From positions 6,260 to 70,259 of the forward strand of contig JAHBTC010000001.1 of assembly GCA_019638835.1 (NCBI GenBank): DNA of 64,000 nucleotides, given 5' to 3'. The stretch is from Fimbriimonadaceae bacterium (GTDB taxonomy: Bacteria; Armatimonadota; Fimbriimonadia; Fimbriimonadales; Fimbriimonadaceae). Within the stretch, counting starts at the first letter, position 1; every line of letters starts with the position of its first letter. A program made the translations under genes and the position numbers. The notes beneath the pieces were generated by a model. That model worked only from the letters and a program-made list of their open reading frames with translations. It searched no databases and was not told where the DNA came from. Of the stretch, positions 2,612-49,604 are shown piece after piece.

Positions 2612-2944
2612 ATGGTGTATCGGCCAATTCGCTACGAGCAAATGATGAAGGCGGCGGAAGGTCTCGATGTCCGCGCTCGCCGGATGTTCGATGGCATGGC
2701 GATCTATTCGGGAGAGAAAATGTTCGCGTACCTCGTTGGTGAGGACATCGGGCTCAAACTCTCCCCCTTGGATCGCGAGACCGCCCTCGGAATGGACGGT
2801 GCGGAGTTACTCCGCGCCAATCCGGAAGCAGAACCGATGAAGGAATATGTTCGGATGCCGCGCTTGGTGCTCGATAACTACGACACATTTGCGTCGTGGG
2901 TTCAAAAGAGCGCTGATTACGCAACCGGGCAGACCGTCAACTAA
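2612..2944 (+). CDS. TfoX N-terminal domain-like protein
   Basis: 110 aa. RRMFDGMAIYSGEKMFAYLVGEDIGLKL matches my memory of the TfoX_N pattern (MFGG..ly..gkmFa......l.lK). No search was possible. Confidence 0.55.
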   Translation: MVYRPIRYEQMMKAAEGLDVRARRMFDGMAIYSGEKMFAYLVGEDIGLKLSPLDRETALGMDGAELLRANPEAEPMKEYVRMPRLVLDNYDTFASWVQKSADYATGQTVN

Positions 2945-3054
2945 GTTCTGCATTCGAAACGACAACGAAGTCGGGTCGGGGTCAATTTTCGACTCCGGCC
3001 CGTTTTCTTGACTCAGCAAGCAAAAAACCACCAAGATACGCCAAGGAAACGCGT

Positions 3055-4017
3055 TTGAAGAAGATCGGAGTGATCACAAGCGGGGGCGACTCGCCCGGAA
3101 TGAATGCCGCCGTACGCGGGGTGGTTCGGGCCGCGCTCGGCAGGGGCGCAGAAGTTTTCGGATTCCGCCACGGTTGGCGTGGAGTGATCAGTGGGGACGG
3201 GTTTCCCATGAACTCCGGGTCTGTTTCGGGGATTGTCGATCGAGGGGGTACATCTCTACACACCGCCCGGTGCCCTGAATTCCGAGAGCCAAAAGGGCGC
3301 GAGCAAGCCGTTCAAGTACTTAAGGAGTTCGAAGTGGACGGCTTGGTAGTGATCGGCGGCGACGGATCGCTCACGGGTGCCCGTAGACTCTTCGAGGAGT
3401 TTCGTTTTCCCGTGGTCGGGATTCCAGGATCGATTGATAACGATATTGCCGGTACCGACTATTCCATCGGGTTTGACACGGCCGTCAATACCGCGATGGA
3501 TGCGATCGACAAAATTCGAGATACGGCATACAGTCACGACCGCGTTTTCGTAATAGAGGTGATGGGCCGGGCCAACGGATTCATCGCAGTCGAAGTCGCT
3601 TTGGCAAGCGGTGCTGAAGCCGTATTGGTTCCTGAAGTTCCATTCTCGCTCATGGATGCGTGTAATCGGCTCCGAAAACTCCGCGTTGAAGGAAAGCGAA
3701 GCAGTCTGATCATTGTGGCTGAGGGGGCGGCGCGCGCGACGGACGTTGCCGACTTCATCCATCGCACGACGGGCTTTGAAACCCGCTACCTGGTGCTCGG
3801 CCACATGCAGCGAGGTGGTTCGCCAACCGCATTTGATCGGGTTTTGGCGGTTCGTCTCGGCGCTTACGCAGCAAATCGTTTGCTGAGCGGATTTATGGGT
3901 GAGATGGTCGGCGTAGACGGCGGCAAGCTAGTCGCTCATCCACTCAGTTACGTATTGAGCACCACAAAGAACATTGATCCGGACCGACTGCTTCTGGTTG
4001 AGGCGATGACGGTTTGA
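3055..4017 (+). CDS. pfkA: ATP-dependent 6-phosphofructokinase
   Basis: 320 aa with a TTG start. Motifs KKIGVITSGGDSPGMNAAVRGVVR, VVIGGDGSLTGA, GIPGSIDNDI and GHMQRGGSPT. Confidence 0.9.
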   Translation: MKKIGVITSGGDSPGMNAAVRGVVRAALGRGAEVFGFRHGWRGVISGDGFPMNSGSVSGIVDRGGTSLHTARCPEFREPKGREQAVQVLKEFEVDGLVVIGGDGSLTGARRLFEEFRFPVVGIPGSIDNDIAGTDYSIGFDTAVNTAMDAIDKIRDTAYSHDRVFVIEVMGRANGFIAVEVALASGAEAVLVPEVPFSLMDACNRLRKLRVEGKRSSLIIVAEGAARATDVADFIHRTTGFETRYLVLGHMQRGGSPTAFDRVLAVRLGAYAANRLLSGFMGEMVGVDGGKLVAHPLSYVLSTTKNIDPDRLLLVEAMTV

Positions 4018-4964
4018 TTCTTACTCTAACGCTCAACCCGGCTCTCGACCAAACGCTGTTCGTGGACGGCCTCAAGCCGTACGACACAAACCGAGTCCGC
4101 CATACCGAGACGGATGCGGGCGGAAAAGGGATCAATCTGAGCCGGGTTGCTCATGAGTTAGGAATCGAAACCCTCGCTCTCGGCCCTCTCGGTGGTGCCT
4201 CGGGGGATGCGATTTCGGGGGGCATGAAGGAAATGGGGGTGCCCGCTGCTTTTACTCCGATCGCAGGCCACACCCGCACGAATCTCAGCGTTGAAGACGG
4301 TTCCGGAAATCCACCGACAACGTTCAACGGCTTAGGACCGGTCATCAGCCTCGGCGAATGGGAGGGAATCGTCTCGGCACTCCGGAAAAACCTTTCGGGG
4401 GCCAGTTTTGTGGCGATGGGAGGCTCCTTACCGCCAGGCATTGACGTAACGGCGTTTCATGACTTGGCAGCACTCGTGCGCCGATCTGGAGTTGAGGTGG
4501 TCGTGGACGCCGACGGCGAAGCGATGCAACTGACGATGGAAGTCCCGCCGGATGTCATCAAGCCCAACAAGCGAGAAGCCGAGCGTCTTCTTGGATTTCC
4601 CTTGAACTCCCATGAAGAGATCGGACTCGCGTGCAAAAAACTCTCGTCCGATCTTGCTGAAGCCGGTTCAAAGCGGGCAGTGGCGATCATTTCGATGGGT
4701 GCCGAAGGCGCGTTCATGGCATCCCCTAACGGTATCTGGTTCGGCGAAGCGATCCATGTGAAGCCCAAGAGCACGATTGGCAGTGGTGATTCAATGCTCG
4801 CGGGAGTTCTGACGACTTTTCTTCGCGGGGGGGATGAAGTCGAGGCGCTTGCCCTTGGTCTGGCATGCGGTGCGGCAACTGCCGAAACCGACGGTTCAGA
4901 GATTGGCCGACGCTCGGAAATTGACCGTCTCCTTCCCCATGCCGTCGTGCGCCCCTGGGGTTGA
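4014..4964 (+). CDS. PfkB/ribokinase-family sugar-phosphate kinase (1-phosphofructokinase / tagatose-6-phosphate kinase-like)
   Basis: 316 aa. N-terminus LTLNPALDQT...TDAGGKGINLSRV and C-terminal GSGDSMLAGV...GAATA are typical of the FruK/LacC branch. The start overlaps the pfkA stop by 4 nt. Confidence 0.8.
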   Translation: MILTLTLNPALDQTLFVDGLKPYDTNRVRHTETDAGGKGINLSRVAHELGIETLALGPLGGASGDAISGGMKEMGVPAAFTPIAGHTRTNLSVEDGSGNPPTTFNGLGPVISLGEWEGIVSALRKNLSGASFVAMGGSLPPGIDVTAFHDLAALVRRSGVEVVVDADGEAMQLTMEVPPDVIKPNKREAERLLGFPLNSHEEIGLACKKLSSDLAEAGSKRAVAIISMGAEGAFMASPNGIWFGEAIHVKPKSTIGSGDSMLAGVLTTFLRGGDEVEALALGLACGAATAETDGSEIGRRSEIDRLLPHAVVRPWG

Positions 4965-5864: not shown

Positions 5865-7094
5865 ATGACGGCGGAAGTCGTTTCGGTGGGTACGGAACTG
5901 CTCCTTGGCGACACGGTTGACACCAACGCGGTGGCGTTGGGCCGAGCATTCGCCGCTGCTGGACTTAGCCACTTCCACCGACAAACCGTCGGTGACAATC
6001 CAAAACGATTGCGCGTTGCGCTGGACCTTGCGTTCTCCCGCTCGGATCTCGTAGTCACAATCGGCGGATTGGGCCCCACTTCGGACGATATCACCCGGGA
6101 GTTAGTCTGCGATTCGCTGGGTCTGGAGATGGTTGAAGACGAAGAAATCGTCAACCATCTCAAATCACTTTTCCGTACGCGAGGTCGACCATGGGTCGAA
6201 ACAAATGCGCGTCAGGCGATGCGCCCTGCAGGTTCGACTGTGATCGCGAACGCGAACGGTACGGCTCCTGGGCTCGTCGTCGAATCAGGCGGAAAGATGG
6301 CGATCCTCATGCCCGGCCCGCCGAGTGAGTTCCTGCCCATGTTGACCGATTCCGTGGCTCCGATCCTCGCTCGCATTGGGGGAGGCGAATTGATTCACAG
6401 TCGGGTGCTTCGTGTCGTCGGGCGCGGTGAGAGTCAACTCGAGCAAGATTTATCTGACCTTATGGTGAGCGAGAATCCGTCGTTGGCTCCGTATGCCAAG
6501 ACATGGGAGGTTCACCTGCGTCTTACCGCCCGCGCTAACTCAGTTGAAGAAGCAAAGCGGATGATCGCTCCCTTGGAAGCCTTGGTTAGAGGACGGATTG
6601 GAGAGCATATCTACGGCGCAGACAAAGAAGAGTTGGAGGATGTTGTGCTTTCTCAACTGCGAAGCAGGGCGGAGACCTTGGCTGTCGCCGAGAGTTGCAC
6701 GGGTGGGGGGCTCGGCGAGAGACTCACTAGAGTGGCCGGGGCAAGCGATGTTTTTCAAGGTGGAGTGATCTCCTACGCAAACTCGGCGAAAGTGAATGTT
6801 CTCGGCGTGCTCCCCGAGGACATTGCTGAGCACGGCGCGGTCAGCGAACGAGTTGCGTGCGAGATGGCGAGGGGTGCGCGAGACAGGTTGCACGCCGACT
6901 GGGGGATCTCCATCACCGGTGTCGCAGGGCCAGATGGAGGAACGCTGGATAAACCGGTAGGCACGGTTTGGATCGGCCTCGCCGGGCAGGGTGAAGTGGC
7001 GGCAATCGAACATCGGTTCGGTGGTACTCGAACCACGGTCAGGTCGCGATCTCAGACGGCCGCTCTTACGACGCTTTGGCGACGGCTTCGCTAA
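5865..7094 (+). CDS. cinA: CinA family protein (MoCF-binding domain + NMN deamidase PncC domain)
   Basis: 409 aa. N-terminus AEVVSVGTELLLGDTVDTNA and C-terminal half LAVAESCTGGGL...ISITGVAGPDGG. Confidence 0.9.
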   Translation: MTAEVVSVGTELLLGDTVDTNAVALGRAFAAAGLSHFHRQTVGDNPKRLRVALDLAFSRSDLVVTIGGLGPTSDDITRELVCDSLGLEMVEDEEIVNHLKSLFRTRGRPWVETNARQAMRPAGSTVIANANGTAPGLVVESGGKMAILMPGPPSEFLPMLTDSVAPILARIGGGELIHSRVLRVVGRGESQLEQDLSDLMVSENPSLAPYAKTWEVHLRLTARANSVEEAKRMIAPLEALVRGRIGEHIYGADKEELEDVVLSQLRSRAETLAVAESCTGGGLGERLTRVAGASDVFQGGVISYANSAKVNVLGVLPEDIAEHGAVSERVACEMARGARDRLHADWGISITGVAGPDGGTLDKPVGTVWIGLAGQGEVAAIEHRFGGTRTTVRSRSQTAALTTLWRRLR

Positions 7095-30754: not shown

Positions 30755-30829
30755 TGGTGGAGGCTAGGGGATTCGAACCCCTGACCCTCTGCTTGCAAAG
30801 CAGATGCTCTCCCACTGAGCTAAGCCCCC
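30755..30829 (-). tRNA. tRNA-Ala (anticodon UGC), CCA encoded
   Basis: Hand-folded from the reverse complement: GGGGGCT-TA-GCTC-AGTGGGA-GAGC-A-TCTGC-TTTGCAA-GCAGA-GGGTC-AGGGG-TTCGAAT-CCCCT-AGCCTCC-A-CCA. It carries the G3:U70 Ala identity pair. Confidence 0.9.
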
Positions 30830-37170: not shown

Positions 37171-37288
37171 CTCATTTTCGGTCGACAGATTGGTCAGGGT
37201 CTTGCATACTCAGCGAAAAAAGTAGACAAGCGTCTGGTAATATCAAAACCTCTCTTCTGCGGGGCAGATGGCTCCGCGAGGTCGGACC

Positions 37289-38431
37289 ATGCCCTACATC
37301 CTCTGGCTCGAATGGCGCAACTTCTATTGCGACGAAGATCTGCTTGACCCCCAAATCGTCGTGCGTGACGAACACGTCCTTGACGCGAACTCTGTCGCAA
37401 GGGGACGCGGCATCCAGCCCGGATTCACCCTAAGCCAAGCCCGGAGCATCCTCCCTGGCATCCTGACGAAACAGTGGGCAGAAGGCGAATACGAGCCCAA
37501 ACAACGCGCCTGGCTTAACGAATGCACTCCCTATACTGGGCGAATCGAGCCGTTGCAGGACCATATCGCCGCACTCGATCTCACCCTCCTGCCGCAGGCC
37601 GAGCAAGCCGCCGAAGACCTCATCGAACACCTTCTCCGGCGGTTCAAATCGCCCATGCGATACGGGGCAGGGCCGTCCAAGTGGGTGGCCTCCATCGCCT
37701 CGCACCACCTCGAACTATATCAAGCCTCGGCCAACCCTCAACGGTTCCTCGCGCCGCTTAGCTTAGACAACCTAGAGGTCATCCCGATCGAACATCGGGA
37801 ACGACTGAACCTGCTGGGTTACTTCCAGATTGGGCAGATTACGACCCTTCCTCCGGCGGTGCTGAAGCGGCAGTTCGGCGAGGGGGGAGACCTCATCCTC
37901 CGGGCGGCACGTGGGCAGGTGAGCGACCCAGTGCGCGCCATCTATCCCCCCGACCGGTTGATGGATGCGTTTCGATTCGAGTCTCCCGTCGCCGAGAGGG
38001 AAGCCCTTGATTTTGCTTTGAAGCACCTTGCGGAGCATCTCGCCCCCCGGCTGAACGGTCGTCAAGCCGCCCGCGCCCGCTTGGTGTTGGAAGACGAAAA
38101 CGAGGACACGCTGACTGCCAAGCGCACGTTCCCTCGCCCGATTCATGACTATGCCGGGTTGCGTTCGGCGCTACGCATTCTGTGCGAGCAGATCGTAGCG
38201 CGCATCCAAGATCCGCTAGTAGGAGTGCGGGTGATGCTGACCGAACTGGAACCCTATCGTCCGCTTCAGAGTGATCTGTTCATGCCGATGAAGCGGCTGA
38301 CCCCCGAACCCGCGATGGCGGCGCTTGAGCAAGTTTTCGGGCAGGGGGCGGTGATGACGGGTGCGGCGATGCCCGTCCCACGTCGTCGTCGTGTTTTGAA
38401 GGAGTGGAAGGATGCCACCGGATGGTCCTGA
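37289..38431 (+). CDS. imuB: ImuB-like inactive Y-family DNA polymerase
   Basis: Y-family fold directly upstream of dnaE2. The N-terminus MPYILWLEWRNFYCDED lacks the catalytic DMDAFFASVE-type carboxylates, as expected for ImuB. ATG 37289 is preferred over ATG 37268. Confidence 0.7.
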   Translation: MPYILWLEWRNFYCDEDLLDPQIVVRDEHVLDANSVARGRGIQPGFTLSQARSILPGILTKQWAEGEYEPKQRAWLNECTPYTGRIEPLQDHIAALDLTLLPQAEQAAEDLIEHLLRRFKSPMRYGAGPSKWVASIASHHLELYQASANPQRFLAPLSLDNLEVIPIEHRERLNLLGYFQIGQITTLPPAVLKRQFGEGGDLILRAARGQVSDPVRAIYPPDRLMDAFRFESPVAEREALDFALKHLAEHLAPRLNGRQAARARLVLEDENEDTLTAKRTFPRPIHDYAGLRSALRILCEQIVARIQDPLVGVRVMLTELEPYRPLQSDLFMPMKRLTPEPAMAALEQVFGQGAVMTGAAMPVPRRRRVLKEWKDATGWS

Positions 38432-41400
38432 GATCACCGCCCGATGGCGAGAAGCCGGCGAATGGTGGCGTAACGAACCGGCCTTAGAGTTCGTGCAGTA
38501 CCGGGACAAGAAAGGGATTCGGCGCGAGAAAAGCCGCCCCTTCGTCTATCCCGAGCCAGGGCAAGAAAGCGAAGTCCGGATCCGTCGCCTCCGAGACGAG
38601 AAGGTGCGTCTGGCAACTGGGGCATTTATTCCTCCCGAATATGGGAACGCTGTCGCCCCGAAAGAGGGAGTTCTCCTCCACGCGATGAGTGGTTTCTCCT
38701 TCTGCCGTAGCACCTTGCACGCAGCCGAGATCCCCGCTTTCGCCGCCGAAAAGGGGTACCGAGCGGCTCTTCTTGCCGACTCATTTTCACTCAGCGGCGC
38801 ATACGAATTCCAACGGACGTGCGACAAGGTGGGCGTCCATCCTCTCATCGGCGCGACCCTTGAAATGGAGAGTGGCGGCGAGATCGTTTTGGTGGCGCGG
38901 AACGCGACGGGATACCGTTCGCTCTCACGGCTCATCACCGACTGTCACCTGAACGAGCCGAGACTCTTCCCGCTTTGTACTTGGGAACGACTGGCCCACC
39001 ACGCCGAGGGACTACTTTGTTTGACGGGCGGCAGCAATGGCCCTCTTGACCGGTGCCTCATGCGCCGGGAAATGGCAGAATCCGCAACTCTTCTTGACCG
39101 TTTGGTGGATTTATATGGTAGGGGCCATGTTTTTGTCCAGATTGAGCGAGCAGCCCTCCCTTGGTCAATGGAAGTTGAGAGGCGGTTGCGAACGCTTGCG
39201 ACGGAGAAAGGAGTGACGCAGGTCGCGGGAGGCCCGACACTGTTCCTGCGTCCTGATCACTTCCCGGCACAAGACGTGATTGTATGCGTGGATTCGCTCT
39301 GCCTGATTGAAGAGGTGGACGGACGCAAACCTCGCCGTGACCCGGCTCAGCCGCAAATCACATTGCCTCCCCGGCGAGAGATCAACGCGGAGCGGTTCCT
39401 CCACGAGTGGCCCAAGGCCGTAGAGAAGTATCGCGACGCACCCGATCTCCTTGCTAACCTTGACCGAGTGGTGGAACTCTGCGATAAGCGAGTTCTGCCC
39501 GGTCGGGTTGACCTCCCACGGGTCTGTCGGAACGAGGTGGGTGTCTTCCAAGACCTTGTTGAACTTGGAGCACGGCGGCACTACGGGGCACTCACCGTAC
39601 GCCACAAACGACGGCTTCACTACGAAATGAAGCGTATTCTTCGGTTGGGTTACGAACGGCATTTCCTCATGGCTTGGGATATGTGCAACTGGGCGGATGG
39701 GGAAGGGATCGTCCACAGTGGCCGCGGATCCGTCGTGGATTCGGTGGTTGCCTACTGCCTTGGTCTGTCGCGGATTGACGCGCTGGAGTTCAACCTGCAC
39801 TTTGATCGCTTCCTCCCCGATGACGGCAGTAAGCGGCCCGACATTGACATTGACTTTGAGGCGAACCGTAGGGAAGATGTACGGCAGTACCTCGTTCGCA
39901 AGTACGGGGGTCGCCACGTCGCTACGGTCGCCGCGTTCGGCACCTTCGGTTCAAGAGGCATCGTCCGCGAGGTGGGCAAGGTGATGGGGATCGCCCCGCA
40001 AAGCATGGCGTACCTGGCCAAGCGTCTTCACGGAGGAGTGACCCCCGAGAGGCTCGAAAAGGCCCTTGATGCTCGTCCCGAACTCCGCGAGAGCAACATC
40101 CCCCGCGAGCACTTTCATTGGGTGTTCCGGTTGGCAACGCATCTCATGGATCTGCCGCGCAATGCCCGCGCCCACTCTTCGGGCGTGGTCGTCTCGGCCT
40201 TACCGATCGCCGATATCGTTCCCGTCACGGAATCCGGAGCCGACGGCGTGCGGATCATGCAGTGGGACAAACGGAGCGCGAAGTTCTGCTTTGATAAGTT
40301 CGATGTGCTGTGCTTGCGTGGCAACGATGTGCTCAGCGGAACTGCCGCGCGGGTCGGGGACGAAGTCAACGTGGATCAACTCCCGATCCACGATCCGGAG
40401 GTGTACCGAACCATGCGCGCGGGTCATCTCATCGGCATTCCGCAGTCCGCATCCCCCGCCATGCGACAGGCGCACATGCGCATCAAAACCCAGAACCTGA
40501 TGGACGCGGGGATTGTGCAAGCGGGGATTCGACCGGGAGTGGGGGGCGCAGTGAAACTGAACGAATACATCGCTCGGCGCAACGGAAAGCCGTTTCGACT
40601 ATCTCACGAAGATTTGGACGAGATTCTGATGCCGACTCTGGGGATTGTCGTGTTCCAAGAGCAGATTGATATGCTCCTCACGAAGTTCGCGGGGTTCTCT
40701 GGGGGCGAAGCAGAGGAGATACGCGAACGCATCCACAAGGACAAGCGTGATTACGCCTCGACCATCAAGGAAGAGGTACTTGCTCGAATTGAGAGTCGCG
40801 GCTATCCCACCCACGTTGCCGAGGATGTTTATCAATTGGTGGCCGGTTTCAAGGGATATGGATTTGCCGAGGGGCATGCGTTAGCGTTCGCCGAGATCAC
40901 AGTGCGCTCTATCTATCTGCAACAAAGATTCCCAGCGCCGTACTTCGCCGCGCTCCTCGATGCCCAACCGGCAGGTTACTACGGCCCCGCAACGATTGGC
41001 AACGAAGCCCGCAATCGGGGTGTTCGGGTGCTACCGCCAGGAGTGAACACCAGTGAACTGGGATTCTTGGTGGAAGATGTGCGCTCGGACCAAGACCCAA
41101 AAATCATGTTTCCCGACGGTGGAATCAGAATCGCTCTTCGTCAAATCATGGGGGTAAGCGATGCCCTAAGGGAACGTATTGTTGATCGTCGCCCTTACCG
41201 CTCCTTTTATGATTTTGTGGCACGCGCCGAACCCGATCGCGATGAGTTAGAAAACCTGATCCTCTGCGGAGCACTGGACGAGATGCATACCAATCGGAGG
41301 GCGATGATGTGGGCGATCCCGCCTGCCTATGAGTATGCGGCGCAGGTAAGGGGACAAGCGGGCAGGCTCCCCTTCGAGATCGTCTCCCCGGACCTGCCCA

Positions 41401-41864
41401 GTGGAGTAGAGGACTTTGACGCCTTCGACCGGGCGGTGCATGAGCGACGCATCCTGGGGATGGATGTTGCTCACCATATGGTTGCCTTTGAGCGTGAACG
41501 AATTCGAGCCAAAGGGGGAGTGACGGCCGCCGAGGCCTCTAACCATCGCCCCGGCAAAGAGTTGCTGGTGGTGGGGAACCCGATACGCCTCCGCTTCCCG
41601 CCGACCCAAAGCGGGCGAAGGGTGCTTTTCTTTGATCTGGAGGACGAAACCGGGCTCCTCAACGTGACTTGTTTCGATGACACCTACCAACGCTATGGCC
41701 ACCATGTGGTCTGCAACCCTTATGTGGCTTTGCGGGGGCAAACCGAAGACCGTGACGGTCATCTGTCCTTCATCTGTGACCGGATATGGACGTATCGCCC
41801 CGCTTGCTATTCCTCAGCGGTGCCGGTGCTTCCCCTAGTGACGGCGGACTTCCTGATGTCCTAG
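38412..41864 (+). CDS. dnaE2: error-prone DNA polymerase III alpha-like subunit
   Basis: 1150 aa. The PHP domain starts around residue 88 (LLHAMSGFSFCRS), followed by the polymerase core (DIDIDFE, GRGSVVDS) and OB fold. Pairing with imuB supports the assignment. An alternative in-frame GTG start lies at 38604. Confidence 0.9.
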   Translation: MPPDGPEITARWREAGEWWRNEPALEFVQYRDKKGIRREKSRPFVYPEPGQESEVRIRRLRDEKVRLATGAFIPPEYGNAVAPKEGVLLHAMSGFSFCRSTLHAAEIPAFAAEKGYRAALLADSFSLSGAYEFQRTCDKVGVHPLIGATLEMESGGEIVLVARNATGYRSLSRLITDCHLNEPRLFPLCTWERLAHHAEGLLCLTGGSNGPLDRCLMRREMAESATLLDRLVDLYGRGHVFVQIERAALPWSMEVERRLRTLATEKGVTQVAGGPTLFLRPDHFPAQDVIVCVDSLCLIEEVDGRKPRRDPAQPQITLPPRREINAERFLHEWPKAVEKYRDAPDLLANLDRVVELCDKRVLPGRVDLPRVCRNEVGVFQDLVELGARRHYGALTVRHKRRLHYEMKRILRLGYERHFLMAWDMCNWADGEGIVHSGRGSVVDSVVAYCLGLSRIDALEFNLHFDRFLPDDGSKRPDIDIDFEANRREDVRQYLVRKYGGRHVATVAAFGTFGSRGIVREVGKVMGIAPQSMAYLAKRLHGGVTPERLEKALDARPELRESNIPREHFHWVFRLATHLMDLPRNARAHSSGVVVSALPIADIVPVTESGADGVRIMQWDKRSAKFCFDKFDVLCLRGNDVLSGTAARVGDEVNVDQLPIHDPEVYRTMRAGHLIGIPQSASPAMRQAHMRIKTQNLMDAGIVQAGIRPGVGGAVKLNEYIARRNGKPFRLSHEDLDEILMPTLGIVVFQEQIDMLLTKFAGFSGGEAEEIRERIHKDKRDYASTIKEEVLARIESRGYPTHVAEDVYQLVAGFKGYGFAEGHALAFAEITVRSIYLQQRFPAPYFAALLDAQPAGYYGPATIGNEARNRGVRVLPPGVNTSELGFLVEDVRSDQDPKIMFPDGGIRIALRQIMGVSDALRERIVDRRPYRSFYDFVARAEPDRDELENLILCGALDEMHTNRRAMMWAIPPAYEYAAQVRGQAGRLPFEIVSPDLPSGVEDFDAFDRAVHERRILGMDVAHHMVAFERERIRAKGGVTAAEASNHRPGKELLVVGNPIRLRFPPTQSGRRVLFFDLEDETGLLNVTCFDDTYQRYGHHVVCNPYVALRGQTEDRDGHLSFICDRIWTYRPACYSSAVPVLPLVTADFLMS

Positions 41865-45303: not shown

Positions 45304-46266
45304 GTGACCGATAGTGCCGCCGAGGTATTCGTTGGCAAGGTTGGCATCGCGGGGCCGGGGCACGCTGCCGATTTGGATATTCTTCGCCAGTCGCCCGCTC
45401 CTAATGAGATTGTTTGGGCGACATTGCTTGTGCGTGATGCCCATCAGGTTGAACAATTCGTCTGCGACGAACTTGGATTTCCGCGGGCCACTATGGCAAA
45501 CCTCCGAGGATCGCGCCTTCGGTCGGGTCTCGTTTCAACGGAAAGCCGGTTTGGATTTATGTTTGCTGCGTTGGACATGAACGACCGTTTGGAAACCGTC
45601 GCCGTGTTCTTCGATGGCCAGCGACTCATCACTGTAGTACGAGAGAGGGTAACGCTCCTCGAAGAAAGTTTCAAAGTGTGGCTATCGGATCCGGACGGAT
45701 TAGGCCGAGACATCGGTACATTGTTGGCGCGCCTCCTTTCGGAGATGGCGAATGATTTGGAACCAGTCTTCGAAGCGTTCCACGAGAGGATCGAAGACTT
45801 CGAAGAAGAGTCGCTTAAGCTTGGTGGCGACAACCCCGGTAAAGCGCTGAAAGAGCGGCGTACATTACTATTGCTGCGCCGCAAGATCGCTCCTATGCGA
45901 GATAATGTTCGCGCGCTTGCTCGCCGCAAAGAGATGCTCGGAGCGCAGGTGATAGAGCAATTGAGAGACCTCGGAGATCGAATGAACCACTTGGTGGATG
46001 AGATAGATATTGGGCGGGAGATGGTGCGAGAAGTGGTTGATGCGGAGATGAGTATGACGAGCAACCGCCTGAATCAAATCATGCGAAAAATGACGGTAAT
46101 CACATCTGTACTGGCGGTGGCGACTTTGGTGGCAAGCAACTACGGAATGAATTTTGAGGTGATGCCAGAACTCGCCTGGATCGCCGGATATCCTTTCGCG
46201 ATTACGCTGATGCTCGGACTCTCAGGTTTAACATTGTGGCTGTTCAAGCGTAACGGCTACTTCTGA
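45304..46266 (+). CDS. corA: CorA-family magnesium/cobalt transporter
   Basis: 320 aa. C-terminal TM pair with the YGMNFEVMPEL (GMN) motif. Confidence 0.85.
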   Translation: MTDSAAEVFVGKVGIAGPGHAADLDILRQSPAPNEIVWATLLVRDAHQVEQFVCDELGFPRATMANLRGSRLRSGLVSTESRFGFMFAALDMNDRLETVAVFFDGQRLITVVRERVTLLEESFKVWLSDPDGLGRDIGTLLARLLSEMANDLEPVFEAFHERIEDFEEESLKLGGDNPGKALKERRTLLLLRRKIAPMRDNVRALARRKEMLGAQVIEQLRDLGDRMNHLVDEIDIGREMVREVVDAEMSMTSNRLNQIMRKMTVITSVLAVATLVASNYGMNFEVMPELAWIAGYPFAITLMLGLSGLTLWLFKRNGYF

Positions 46267-46534
46267 TTCTTGGGCGAACTTGGAAGCAGAGTCGTGCAAT
46301 CGGCATCGCGAACAGAATACAAAGGGTCGCCAAAATGATTGACGTGAAAATTTCAATGTCTGTCACAAAATAGCCGATCTTGTAATAGAACTCTCTCACT
46401 TCTTCTGCCAAAAGGTAAGAGTACGGATAAAGAAGGAGGTCCATGACGAGGATCCATATGCTTGCGACACGGATGAGCAATGCGAGAATGCTCACCCCTG
46501 TCACTCTCGATGGAGTAATGCTAGGGAGTTTCAT
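46244..46534 (-). CDS. small hypothetical membrane protein (paralog B, start uncertain)
   Basis: About 96 aa from ATG 46534, two or three hydrophobic segments, C-terminal ...PIARLCFQ. Local GC is low. The 3' end overlaps the corA 3' end by 23 nt, which lowers confidence. Confidence 0.3.
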   Translation of the reverse strand: MKLPSITPSRVTGVSILALLIRVASIWILVMDLLLYPYSYLLAEEVREFYYKIGYFVTDIEIFTSIILATLCILFAMPIARLCFQVRPRIRSSRYA

Positions 46535-46817
46535 CGGCCTCAAGTTCGCCATCTCCCCACAAGTCAATCCTTTTCCAGGCAACTTGCCCGAAGCAAAGTC
46601 GAGCAAAGAAGTCGGCAAAGACAATTCCAGTGAGTCCGATGAGCACTTGGAACAACCCGTAGGAATGGAAGCGAAGTATTTCAGTCAGAGGAGTCGGAGC
46701 CCCATAAGGGCTGACTGGAAGCGAGATAAGGCTGAAGACGAAAACTTTGATTCCGTCCACGCAGGACATAAACCCTATTGCCCGAATAGCAACGCTGAGG
46801 AGCCGCATCGCATCCAT
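46521..46817 (-). CDS. small hypothetical membrane protein (paralog A)
   Basis: 98 aa, hydrophobic. It shares the C-proximal motif F(A)RLCFGQ with the downstream ORF. Confidence 0.35.
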   Translation of the reverse strand: MDAMRLLSVAIRAIGFMSCVDGIKVFVFSLISLPVSPYGAPTPLTEILRFHSYGLFQVLIGLTGIVFADFFARLCFGQVAWKRIDLWGDGELEADETP

Positions 46818-46869
46818 GCCTCATCCTACCGTGTGTGAGTCCAGGCCATTTGTTAGGTTCAAATCAGTA

Positions 46870-47830
46870 AAGCTATGACCACCTTTCGGGACCGTGGAAC
46901 ACGATTCCAACCGGGCACGTCTCACCCCTCACCAAAGCCATCCAGCCCAACTCTTTCGGGATACGGGTCAGATGGGGGCGGCGCGGGGGCTTGGCCCCGC
47001 TATCGGATAAACCGTGGCAACACGGCCAAAGGGTTGGGTGCCTTCCCAATCGCTCCGTGAGGAGACCGCCAAGCAATCCGAGGCTCTGCAATCTTCGTCC
47101 CCTGGGCGGAGCAGAACCGGAAGACCGAAACGAGGATCAACGGCGAGTGCTGCGATCCATGTGGTGGATCGCCCCACCACGAAGTTTCACGCGAAAGGTC
47201 GAAGGGTGAGAGTCAAAGAGGAGGAGACATCGTGTGACCGGTCCGTCGGTAACGCGTTGCTCCAGTCGCTACGGCGTCGGGCTCCTGTCAGGAGTACGCC
47301 GTCTTGGATGACCGTCTGGTACCCGCGGAACGGGGAAGGGCAGGGGGGCGTGGCGCATTTGCTCGCTAACAAGCGAGGAAACGCCTGACCACGCACGTCT
47401 TCTGGGCAATCAAAAAAGAATGGCTCAATAGTAGAGCGCCGAAATGATAATTCGGAAGGTCCGGGTGCGATTCCTGGTTCTTTTGCCAAACGCGAAAGAG
47501 TGGTCCGTGCTGTGACGAAAGCAGCCTGTTTCCTCCGGCTTCGGCCAGGGAGGAGCGAGATGGATGTCGCAACGTCCATCGCGTACTGTCGTGGAGACAG
47601 GGTAGAGAACTTAGCGGTTCTCGAACGGAGGTGTCGAGCCTTCGGCCCGGGGAAGCGGCATAACAGTCCGGCGCGAAAGAGGGTGTCAAACCTCTGAAAA
47701 AAGATGGCGGCTGAGGCGCTTGTCATGCTACGGAGCAATCCGGGTATGGCGGATAAACTCGCTAACCGATACGGCGAGCAGAGAGCGACCAAGAGATCGT
47801 GGAAATCTAGAGCGATTTCATTTAAAAGTT
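46870..47830 (+). ncRNA. candidate large structured non-coding RNA (class unknown; boundaries approximate)
   Basis: About 1 kb with no credible ORF but genome-typical GC. There are at least 14 hand-verified helices, several capped by GCAA, GUGA or cUUCGg loops that read correctly only on the + strand, plus an embedded tRNA-like cloverleaf and a terminator-like hairpin at the 3' side. See findings. Confidence 0.3.
47414..47488 (+). tRNA. non-canonical tRNA-like cloverleaf (anticodon GAU, Ile-like), CCA encoded
   Basis: AAAAGAA-TG-GCTC-AATAGTA-GAGC-G-CCGAA-ATGATAA-TTCGG-AAGGT-CCGGG-TGCGATT-CCTGG-TTCTTTT-G-CCA. All four stems pair. The acceptor stem is almost all A-U, the D loop lacks GG, and the T loop reads TGCGATT rather than TTCRANN. 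Confidence 0.45.
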
Positions 47831-47831
47831 T

Positions 47832-47858
47832 GGCCGGTGGTGTTCTGCACCTCCGGCC
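47832..47858. terminator. terminator-like hairpin, possibly bidirectional
   Basis: GGCCGGTGGTG / CACCTCCGGCC forms 11 bp with one mismatch and loop TTCTG. It is preceded by AAAAGTT and followed by TTTCT, so it could end both the + strand RNA candidate and the minus-strand sulfatase transcript. Confidence 0.5.
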
Positions 47859-47998
47859 TTTCTACATTTACAAACAGTTTCCAAGAAGAACTCAGCAACA
47901 TCTTAGTCGCGAGGCACCCGTAAGTCCATTTCTGAACTAGCAATGGTCAGGAGTGGCTGATAGAGAATCGAGAGCCTATGAGACCGATCTCGCTTGGC

Positions 47999-49459
47999 TT
48001 ATTCATACATTGGCAATATTTCTCTTCCGGTTTCCCGCTCCGTGGGAAACTGAGCCCCTAGCCGATACAACTCCGCCAGAAGATCTGTGGCCAACTCCTT
48101 CATCCGCTCTGGCTGATTACGCTTGACATCACGGGTTTCGCCGAGATCCGCCTGCAAGTTGTACAGTTCCCACCGCCGATCGCCATAGAAGAAGATGGCC
48201 TTGAAGTTGCCTTTTCGGATTGCCGAAAAGGGTTCAAGCCCCGGCCCGCCAAACCCACGGTGGTGCGGGTAGTGCCAAACGTTAGGCGAAACCCGACCCA
48301 CATCTGTGCCGGATCGCACCGCCCCTGCGAAAGACTCCGCGTCAGGGCCGTCAAACGAAACCCCCGCGAGATCGGCAATCGTATCGGCGAGGTCAGAGCC
48401 AACTATCCAGGTCTTGTCGAGGGTCGCCCCGCGAGCCACCCCCGCTCCCGAAAACACAAGCGGCACCCGGTATCCCCCTTCGTAGGCCGAACCTTTCCCG
48501 CTTCGCAGGGGCAAGTTATGCAGATTGGGAAAGCCACCTCGCGCCGTCTGCGAGAGTCCGCCGTTGTCGCTCGTGAACACGAAGATCGTATTATCCAATT
48601 GGTTGGCCTCGCGAAGAGTGTTTATGAGCGTGCCGATTGCGGCATCGCAGGTTTCCACCATCGTGGCGTACGCCGCCTCGGTCTCGTTCATCCCGGTGTA
48701 ATTCGCAAGGAACCGAGCGTTCGCCGTTATTGGTGTGTGAACGCTGTACGGCGAGAACCACACGAACACGGGCTTGTTTGATTGCAACGAAATCTTGATG
48801 TCCTTGGCGGCCTCGATTGCAAGTGCATCGTCAAGAAACACATCTTTGCCGTGGTACGCGGCAAGATCGGGGACATCGTTGTGTGCGGGTGGCGCCCCAG
48901 GTTCAGATGTGGCGGCGGCAAAATTCCGGGTTCCGAGGTAACTGCTGGGGTGACCCGCCGCCGATCCCCCAATTGAGCGTTCAAATCCGAGATTCTCGGG
49001 ATCAGCGCCCGCCGTTCCGCCTGCACCGAAGTGAGCTTTTCCGACCTGCAAAGTGTGGTAGCCCGCTTTGCGGAATGCCTCTGCTAACGTGGGTGCGTCC
49101 CCCGGTTGGAACCCGATCTTTCTCCAATCGGGGAGGTCGATCTCGGGGTGCGGTCCGTCGGTTTCTTGGCCACTATGCACCCAACTCGTCACATGATTAC
49201 GGGCCGGATTCTCACCGGTGAGTAACGCTACTCGCGAGGGGGTACATACCGGACAAGAGGCGTAAGCCTGATTAACCTGAACACCGTTGCGGGCGAGTCC
49301 GTCGAGAACAGGAGTCCGAAAATGCCTGCCGACCAACTTCTCGTCCAGCCCGAACGCCAGAGAAGTATCTTGCCAACCCAAATCGTCAATGAGGATGAGA
49401 ACGACGTTGGGCGGAGTAGCCGTAACCAAGCTTGCCGAAAGCAGGAGAGAGGCGAACAT
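47999..49459 (-). CDS. formylglycine-dependent sulfatase (arylsulfatase family)
   Basis: 486 aa. Signal peptide, then LILIDDLGWQD, CPVCTPSRVALLTGE (C-x-P-x-R) and GKAHFG. Confidence 0.9.
   Translation of the reverse strand: MFASLLLSASLVTATPPNVVLILIDDLGWQDTSLAFGLDEKLVGRHFRTPVLDGLARNGVQVNQAYASCPVCTPSRVALLTGENPARNHVTSWVHSGQETDGPHPEIDLPDWRKIGFQPGDAPTLAEAFRKAGYHTLQVGKAHFGAGGTAGADPENLGFERSIGGSAAGHPSSYLGTRNFAAATSEPGAPPAHNDVPDLAAYHGKDVFLDDALAIEAAKDIKISLQSNKPVFVWFSPYSVHTPITANARFLANYTGMNETEAAYATMVETCDAAIGTLINTLREANQLDNTIFVFTSDNGGLSQTARGGFPNLHNLPLRSGKGSAYEGGYRVPLVFSGAGVARGATLDKTWIVGSDLADTIADLAGVSFDGPDAESFAGAVRSGTDVGRVSPNVWHYPHHRGFGGPGLEPFSAIRKGNFKAIFFYGDRRWELYNLQADLGETRDVKRNQPERMKELATDLLAELYRLGAQFPTERETGREILPMYE

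Positions 49460-49523: not shown

Positions 49524-49604
<81 letters not shown>

Follow-up and report, generated by a model that had tools for sequence, protein, structure and literature searches.

The stretch of DNA analysed here, referred to as the window, comprises 64,000 nucleotides (nt) from a metagenome-assembled genome of a Fimbriimonadaceae bacterium in the phylum Armatimonadota (GenBank assembly GCA_019638835.1, contig JAHBTC010000001.1, forward strand, positions 6,260–70,259). On its plus strand, at ~46981–47815, lies the gene for a divergent member of the GOLLD family of large noncoding RNAs, which is followed by a hairpin at 47832–47858. The RNA is 835 nt in length, or ~878 nt if it runs through the hairpin, and both values lie within the ~800 nt or more that serves as a criterion for GOLLD. 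It is built from a 5′ domain and a 3′ domain, the latter containing a pseudoknot and, in its variable linker, a tRNA-like element. That the locus encodes one such noncoding RNA, which would act by forming a cage and would have been acquired horizontally, is considered very probable.

Assignment to GOLLD through the 3′ domain

The family assignment rests in the first place on an Rfam covariance search, as had been proposed in an earlier note on this DNA. In E-value mode, the GOLLD model (RF02032) was matched over its full length (model positions 1–416 of 416) at 47343–47815, on the plus strand only, with 84.6 bits and an E-value of 6.4e-22. The earlier note had suspected a large, ornate plus-strand noncoding RNA with a tRNA, of the GOLLD or ROOL type, and the class can now be given as GOLLD. 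Its further suggestion that the RNA might represent a new class is not upheld: GOLLD was the sole large-RNA family matched, the 5′ domain is also homologous to that of GOLLD, and ROOL, OLE, raiA, HEARO, RNase P, tmRNA and introns gave no Rfam match at E up to 10 in 46300–48500. The elements of the 3′ domain and its surroundings are as follows.

47343–47815, plus strand: GOLLD 3′ domain, full-model match to RF02032
47343–47403, plus strand: first hairpin of the 3′ domain, with the motifs GGCGUG...AUU...AACAAG...GCACGUCU (Rfam alignment)
47404–47505, plus strand: variable linker, aligning to the unpaired A/U-rich Rfam stretch between the first hairpin and the pseudoknot
47414–47488, plus strand: tRNA-Ile(GAU)-like element (ARAGORN; Rfam tRNA, RF00005, 60.2 bits, gathering score 29)
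47506–47516, plus strand: 5′ strand of the pseudoknot, CGUGCUGuGAC, with the conserved GACGAAAG after it (Rfam consensus structure)
47605–47622, plus strand: hairpin GAGAAC-UUAGCG-GUUCUC, with the CUUAGCGG loop motif common to Erythrobacter, Roseobacter and Vibrio phage GOLLDs
47666–47675, plus strand: 3′ strand of the pseudoknot, GUCCGGCGCG (Rfam consensus structure)
47832–47858, plus strand: candidate terminator or 3′ end, a GC-rich hairpin followed by UUUCU

When pairs were counted from a transcription of the printed Rfam alignment, standard pairs were found at 93 of the 98 GOLLD consensus pairs: 44 of these differ from the consensus on both sides, nine differ on one side and 40 are identical to it. 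All 10 pairs of the pseudoknot (47506–47516/47666–47675) are formed, several of them changed relative to the consensus. By analogy with the structures solved by cryo-electron microscopy (cryo-EM), the loop of the hairpin at 47605–47622 may correspond to the symmetric kissing contact that is made between chains.

The 5′ domain and the extent of the RNA

GOLLD RNAs have been described (PMC12286853) as consisting of a variable 5′ domain of ~420 nt and a conserved 3′ domain, with a linker that is variable and disordered. The 5′ domain lies outside the Rfam match, and it was compared with those of other loci using models of its own. With a degenerate pattern written for the first 3′-domain hairpin, 68 viral and 118 metagenomic stretches were collected, mostly GOLLD loci with a few chance matches. 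In an nhmmer search with the present sequence, the metagenomic loci L194, L185, L169 and L229 align from ~46982 onward, and a profile built from these four recovered ~30 further 5′ domains, including those of Mesorhizobium phage Cp1R7A-A1 and Roseobacter phage DSS3P8. A profile hidden Markov model (HMM) and two covariance models (R1 and R2) were all constructed without the present sequence (leave-one-out), and their matches are listed here together with the elements of the domain and the spacer that precedes it.

46981–47342, plus strand: GOLLD 5′ domain, ~362 nt, defined by the profile HMM and covariance models R1 and R2
46984–47083, plus strand: match to the profile HMM of 25 other 5′ domains, 16.7 bits, E 4.6e-5; no other match reported in the window
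46981–47082, plus strand: match to R1 (21 sequences, first ~100 nt), 43.4 bits, E 6.5e-10; next best match 14.7 bits
47192–47346, plus strand: match to R2 (20 sequences, last ~150 nt), 48.5 bits, E 1.3e-11; no further match at E ≤1
46983–47000, plus strand: P1 hairpin, GCGGGG/CCCCGC with loop GCUUGG, aligned to the first hairpin in relatives and in the env-38 construct
46989–46994, plus strand: P1 loop, GCUUGG, the 5′ strand of a pseudoknot
47012–47025, plus strand: conserved GNRA hairpin, CCGUG-GCAA-CACGG, flanked by GAUAAA (5′) and CAAAGGG (3′), as are its counterparts in relatives
47053–47064, plus strand: second GNRA hairpin, CUCC-GUGA-GGAG, aligning to the covarying GNRA/GAAA-type hairpin of R1
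47069–47074, plus strand: 3′ strand of the P1-loop pairing, CCAAGC, inside the conserved CCAnGCAAGCC motif
46838–46980, plus strand: upstream spacer between a divergent small open reading frame (ORF; start codon 46817, minus strand) and the RNA

These matches show that the 5′ domain is homologous to those of other GOLLDs. The middle of the domain (47083–47191), outside the R1 and R2 matches, is variable among relatives, and in the alignment that R2 itself gives for the distal part, two of the 25 modelled pairs are non-standard here. Covariation, which the earlier note had put forward as a test once homologues were collected, was assessed on an alignment of 23 sequences with 43 pairs in 11 helices, using controls in which the partners were slid. 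Standard pairs occupy 88.9% of cells (36–41% in the slid controls), 40 pairs are changed on both sides, and the covariation score is 0.60 as against 0.08–0.14, a contrast that is somewhat inflated since the structure was derived partly from the same alignment. Individual elements are well preserved in the present copy: the four counted stem pairs of P1 (46985–46988/46995–46998) are all formed, as are all six pairs between the P1 loop and the downstream CCAAGC strand, a pairing in which relatives show changes on both sides at six of six pairs with 90.4% of cells paired. The GNRA hairpin at 47012–47025 likewise forms five of its five pairs, and all five covary in relatives.

The boundaries of the RNA follow from these comparisons. 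At the 5′ end, the R1 match starts at 46981 and the env-38 construct used for cryo-EM begins at the P1-equivalent hairpin; at the 3′ end, the Rfam GOLLD match stops at 47815. Of the region 46862–47990 that had originally been proposed, ~46981–47858 therefore stands as RNA and the remainder does not. The hairpin at 47832–47858 exists as described, and transcription probably continues through it; its reading as a terminator is weakened by a poor T tract, and the terminator scan made no call. Upstream, the spacer at 46838–46980 is not conserved in relatives, and it is here that the promoter of the RNA would presumably lie.

The earlier note had also drawn attention to the lack of a credible coding sequence, the genome-like GC content and the abundance of helices. 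The first two observations hold: the ORFs between 46838 and 47999 in the six-frame list are all ≤201 amino acids (aa) and mutually overlapping and gave no matches in Pfam or PHROGs, and GC content is 0.587 over 46980–47858 and 0.566 over the window. As to the third, most of the stems found by hand turned out to be family helices, whereas helix density alone is within chance: minimum free energy (MFE) z-scores for 46980–47342 are −1.83 on the plus strand and −0.98 on the minus strand. Since these values are unremarkable, hand-drawn stems are not evidence by themselves, and it is homology and covariation that decide. Judged in this way, the stems at 46983–47000 (P1), 47012–47025 and 47053–47064 (the GNRA hairpins) and 47347–47385 (the first hairpin of the 3′ domain) coincide with helices of GOLLD or its relatives, and those at 47531–47554, 47555–47584, 47605–47622 and 47758–47778 match helices of the GOLLD consensus or of relatives. 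A proposed long-range helix, 46945–46953/47031–47039, can be drawn but was not adopted as part of the RNA because its 5′ arm falls upstream of 46981, where both R1 and the env-38 construct begin.

The embedded tRNA-like element and related GOLLD loci

The cloverleaf recognized by eye at 47414–47488 is the element identified both by ARAGORN and by the Rfam tRNA model, and it sits inside the RF02032 match, in the variable linker of the family. It has a perfect 7-bp acceptor stem made up entirely of A/U or G/C pairs, G73 and an encoded CCA. The elbow departs from the canonical form: the T-loop reads UGCGAUU, with G for U55, and the D-loop reads AAUAGUA, with no GG, so that the combination of G18–G19 with U54–U55–C56 that characterizes elongator tRNAs is missing. 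The element may be a tRNA-like module rather than a decoding tRNA, because its elbow is atypical and a canonical host tRNA-Ile(GAU) is present at 49524–49600 on the minus strand.

The presence of a tRNA in the linker is a trait of the family, as published work also notes (PMC12286853): one was detectable by ARAGORN in 73 of the 157 other non-redundant pattern-matched GOLLD loci. Five of the 73 are Ile(GAU), for example those of L185 and L202, and 68 have a canonical TTCRA T-loop. The linker tRNA-Lys(UUU) of L208 has the same T-loop as the present copy (UGCGAUU) and a D-loop, AGUAGUU, that also contains no GG; on the sequences, this type of elbow may be a co-varied variant that recurs in GOLLD linkers. 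Several linker tRNAs among the pattern-matched loci (L089–L278) carry A34 anticodons (ACA, ATG, ATA, ATC and ACC), others are labelled ‘???’ by ARAGORN on account of an odd anticodon-loop size, and CCA is encoded at or near the 3′ end in only 22 of the 73. The odd anticodons and loops, together with the low frequency of CCA, suggest that many linker tRNAs are tRNA-like modules and not decoders.

The closest parallels are found in the GOLLDs of alphaproteobacterial phages (phiCbK, Cp1R7A-A1 and Roseobacter phage DSS3P8) and in L194, L185, L169 and L229. They have the same type of 5′ domain as the present copy, sharing the P1 hairpin, the P1-loop pairing, the GNRA hairpins and the CCAnGCAAGCC motif, and the same helices and pseudoknot in the 3′ domain. 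A tRNA occupies the same linker site in Caulobacter phage phiCbK (tRNA-Gly), Mesorhizobium phage Cp1R7A-A1 (tRNA-Leu) and L185 (tRNA-Ile(GAU)). These phage and metagenomic relatives differ from the present copy in two respects: they are found in phage genomes, phage-like contigs or tRNA arrays, whereas it stands alone among chromosomal housekeeping genes; and they score 136–194 bits against the Rfam model, compared with 84.6 bits here, the 5′ domain of this copy being 39–49% identical to theirs.

Two GOLLDs of known structure, env-38, which forms a 14-mer (cryo-EM, PDB 9MEE), and that of Streptococcus agalactiae, which forms a 12-mer, have the two-domain layout seen here. As in the present copy, the env-38 construct starts at the P1 equivalent, and its first 3′-domain hairpin is followed by the variable linker. 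In env-38, however, the linker is 42 nt long and contains no tRNA, and the sequence similarity of env-38 to the present copy is limited to motifs. The GOLLDs of Mycobacterium and Mycolicibacterium resemble this one as copies in bacterial genomes with an embedded tRNA or pseudo-tRNA, and low-level expression has been reported for that of M. aubagnense (PMC6582537); in contrast to the present copy, for which no array is found, they reside in horizontally transferred arrays of ~30 tRNA genes with an HNH endonuclease. ROOL is, like GOLLD, large, ornate, phage-associated, located near tRNAs and cage-forming (PMC12286853), but it is unrelated in sequence and fold, in keeping with the absence of a match to it in the Rfam search described above.

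Some further features of the compared loci were recorded in passing. Tandem GOLLD 3′ domains on one strand, with tRNAs between them, occur in L236 (703–1185 and 2255–2704, minus strand) and L202 (1024–1479 and 1–209, minus strand). In the phage-like contig L169, a gene at 2816–4498 on the minus strand, for a 560-aa protein matching PHROG 850 (‘RNA-binding protein’, possibly Ro60-like), lies ~1–3 kb from the GOLLD, and beside it there is a sub-threshold match to YrlA, a Y RNA-like family, at 4756–4868 (minus strand, 45.4 bits). Genes for tmRNA are found within ~1 kb in the phage GOLLD loci L083 (1384–1702), L086 (2094–2301) and L087 (275–677), all on the plus strand; of these phages, phiCbK and DSS3P8 have a permuted tmRNA and PegLeg a standard one.

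Genomic setting, proposed role and competing explanations

Annotation of the 64 kb shows housekeeping or otherwise ordinary cellular genes. They include metabolic genes (PFK, DAHP synthase, arginine biosynthesis, PEP carboxylase and a Cys/Met PLP enzyme), genes of DNA metabolism and competence (CinA, an ImuB/DnaE2-type pair and DprA), and those for CorA, Sua5, YceG, a secretin and the sulfatase that adjoins the RNA. This sulfatase has 100% identity to a protein of a Fimbriimonadaceae metagenome-assembled genome (Armatimonadota). Apart from the embedded element, the sole nearby tRNA is the host tRNA-Ile at 49524–49600 on the opposite strand, and no flanking direct repeats suggestive of an insertion site were found around the RNA. 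An orthologous sulfatase (62–66% identity) was present in five loci with different neighbours and no GOLLD, and among species-representative genomes the relatives of the neighbouring CorA reach ≤41% identity only. Since the copy stands alone among housekeeping genes, it was probably acquired horizontally; the source would have been a phage-type tRNA/GOLLD cassette, with the RNA kept intact thereafter.

Other searches gave no close relative. A motif scan of viral contigs with the 5′ domain returned nine contigs of jumbo-phage size, none of them close; BLASTN of the 1.1-kb region against phage records gave no match; and the DNA pattern GACGAAAG...CCTCNGGC gave two chance matches and no GOLLD. 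No Armatimonadota names appear in the searched portion of the published GOLLD alignment.

Three other features of the window may be mentioned. The ~600 bp upstream of the RNA (46244–46838) have a GC content of 0.49, compared with 0.57, and contain two mutually overlapping minus-strand ORFs of 126 and 98 aa; for these, Pfam and PHROGs gave nothing, nor did tblastn against the loci compared, and the segment may be a frameshifted or foreign gene acquired alongside the GOLLD. At 37268–41864 on the plus strand, a gene resembling those of Y-family polymerases, with IMS domains, lies immediately before a DnaE-type gene for the alpha subunit of polymerase III, an arrangement that looks like an ImuB–DnaE2 mutagenesis cassette. 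Finally, the host tRNA-Ile(GAU) at 49524–49600 and a tRNA-Ala(UGC) at 30755–30829, both on the minus strand, are stand-alone genes ~19 kb apart, and because no rRNA was detected in the window they do not represent the usual pair of an rRNA spacer.

The cage architecture of GOLLD, with its interior linker and embedded tRNAs, has been described previously (PMC12286853), the linker of env-38 being disordered and facing the interior of the cage. Protein-free assembly into a closed dihedral homo-oligomer is known for env-38 and S. agalactiae GOLLD, and a range of 10–14 chains serves as a criterion for the family. Extrapolated from the cryo-EM structures of these relatives, the likely mechanism is that the present RNA folds without protein and that its chains join, by way of kissing loops and A-minor contacts, into such a closed, dihedral homo-oligomer, with 12–14 chains, capped by the 5′ domains and with rings made of the 3′ domains. 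The linker would be directed into the cavity, and with it the tRNA-like element. The ‘inhibited storage’ of tRNA by the cage is a published idea (PMC12990946): more speculatively, the cage could put the tRNA-like element out of reach of RNase P, RNase Z or the translation machinery, or could present it to a partner, and opening of the cage or processing could then release it.

A number of observations weigh against the view that the locus is a GOLLD of this kind. The match scores below the Rfam gathering cut-off for GOLLD of 150 bits, a curated, operational annotation threshold that corresponds to no structural feature; as a result, the RNA at 47343–47815 is missed by routine annotation, and at gathering thresholds the whole window yields four tRNAs only. 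The score was calibrated, in E-value mode, against 13 other complete GOLLD matches in 12 loci (six phage records from the published alignment and six metagenomic loci, one with two copies). It was the lowest of the 14, the other 13 ranging from 136 to 219 bits; three of these also fall below 150 bits, namely the published GOLLD of Erythrobacter phage vB_EliS-L02 (141.9), L169 (144.6) and L194 (136.1). Furthermore, 61 of the 100 highly conserved unpaired consensus nucleotides are kept, and tertiary and quaternary contacts may therefore differ. In the MAFFT alignment, 29 of the 43 shared pairs of the 5′ domain are formed: P1, the GNRA hairpin and the P1-loop pairing fit perfectly and the part downstream less well, and misalignment probably accounts for some of the missing pairs. 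A scan of the upstream spacer showed no sigma-70-like site and located no promoter. Phage genes, an integrase or a tRNA array were found nowhere in the window and the local ORFs have no PHROG match, so that the setting is not the usual phage, prophage or tRNA island of GOLLD. A single-sequence nhmmer search of the 68 viral stretches returned no close relative, and the oligomerization of this copy, as well as any role of its tRNA, is proposed by analogy. The low bit score itself reflects sequence divergence and the 75-nt insertion rather than a broken fold, as 93 of 98 pairs and the full pseudoknot are formed.

Several of these observations are also what would be seen if the RNA, although a GOLLD by descent, were a non-functional fossil: a remnant of a lost prophage or tRNA island that is neither expressed nor assembled. 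This is the main rival to an intact GOLLD gene, and an unlikely one. It would accommodate the absence of phage genes and of a tRNA array throughout the 64 kb, the lowest Rfam score among the complete matches, the changes at 39 of 100 conserved unpaired nucleotides, the lack of canonical U55 and G18–G19 in the embedded tRNA and the five related loci in which the sulfatase has no adjoining GOLLD. Neutral decay would, however, break pairs; here the pseudoknot is preserved in full, as are 95% of the 3′-domain pairs, and 44 pairs depart from the consensus on both sides, a pattern that argues against decay. Both ends of the 5′ domain are, moreover, still recognized by the structure models of relatives at E-values of 1e-9 to 1e-11, and the GC content is like that of the host, which argues for long residence under constraint.

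The remaining explanations fare far worse. That the locus is an ordinary tRNA-Ile gene with long, GC-rich flanks folding by chance could be suggested by the confident tRNA call and the weak MFE z-scores of the flanks, but it is refuted by the matches of these flanks to three independent GOLLD models (RF02032, R1 and R2), and the canonical tRNA-Ile(GAU) of the host is already encoded elsewhere while the embedded one is atypical; this explanation is highly improbable. The same applies to a new class of large ornate RNA, or to ROOL, OLE or another known large RNA: the fact that tRNA alone reached an Rfam gathering score at this position would be in its favour, and it is refuted by the exclusive match to GOLLD among large families at E up to 10 and by the GOLLD homology of the 5′ domain. 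Least probable of all is a decayed protein-coding gene, for which a 201-aa ORF on the minus strand might be cited, since no ORF of the region matches Pfam or PHROGs and relatives show compensatory base-pair changes at the paired positions.

Within the interpretation as an intact GOLLD gene, a more specific proposal is that the RNA has been domesticated by its free-living Armatimonadota host as an intact, stand-alone gene, that drift has turned its tRNA into tRNA-like cargo which no longer decodes and has a co-varied elbow, and that the cage has a cellular function independent of phages. This proposal is tentative and, on present evidence, rather doubtful. If it were true, the locus would be a clean system for finding a phage-independent function of the cage.

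Very few natural RNAs are known to form a cage without protein, and GOLLD is one of them; the copies described are almost all located in phages, prophages or mobile tRNA arrays. What is new here is an intact, strongly diverged GOLLD in a plain chromosomal setting, in a phylum that is not named in the searched part of the published alignment. Whilst it leaves the established knowledge of the family unchanged, this copy reveals that GOLLD extends beyond what the Rfam threshold shows, and it supplies distant sequence variation with which contacts inside a chain and between chains can be analysed by covariation. The locus may also make it possible to test whether the cage is of use to the cell or to phages alone.

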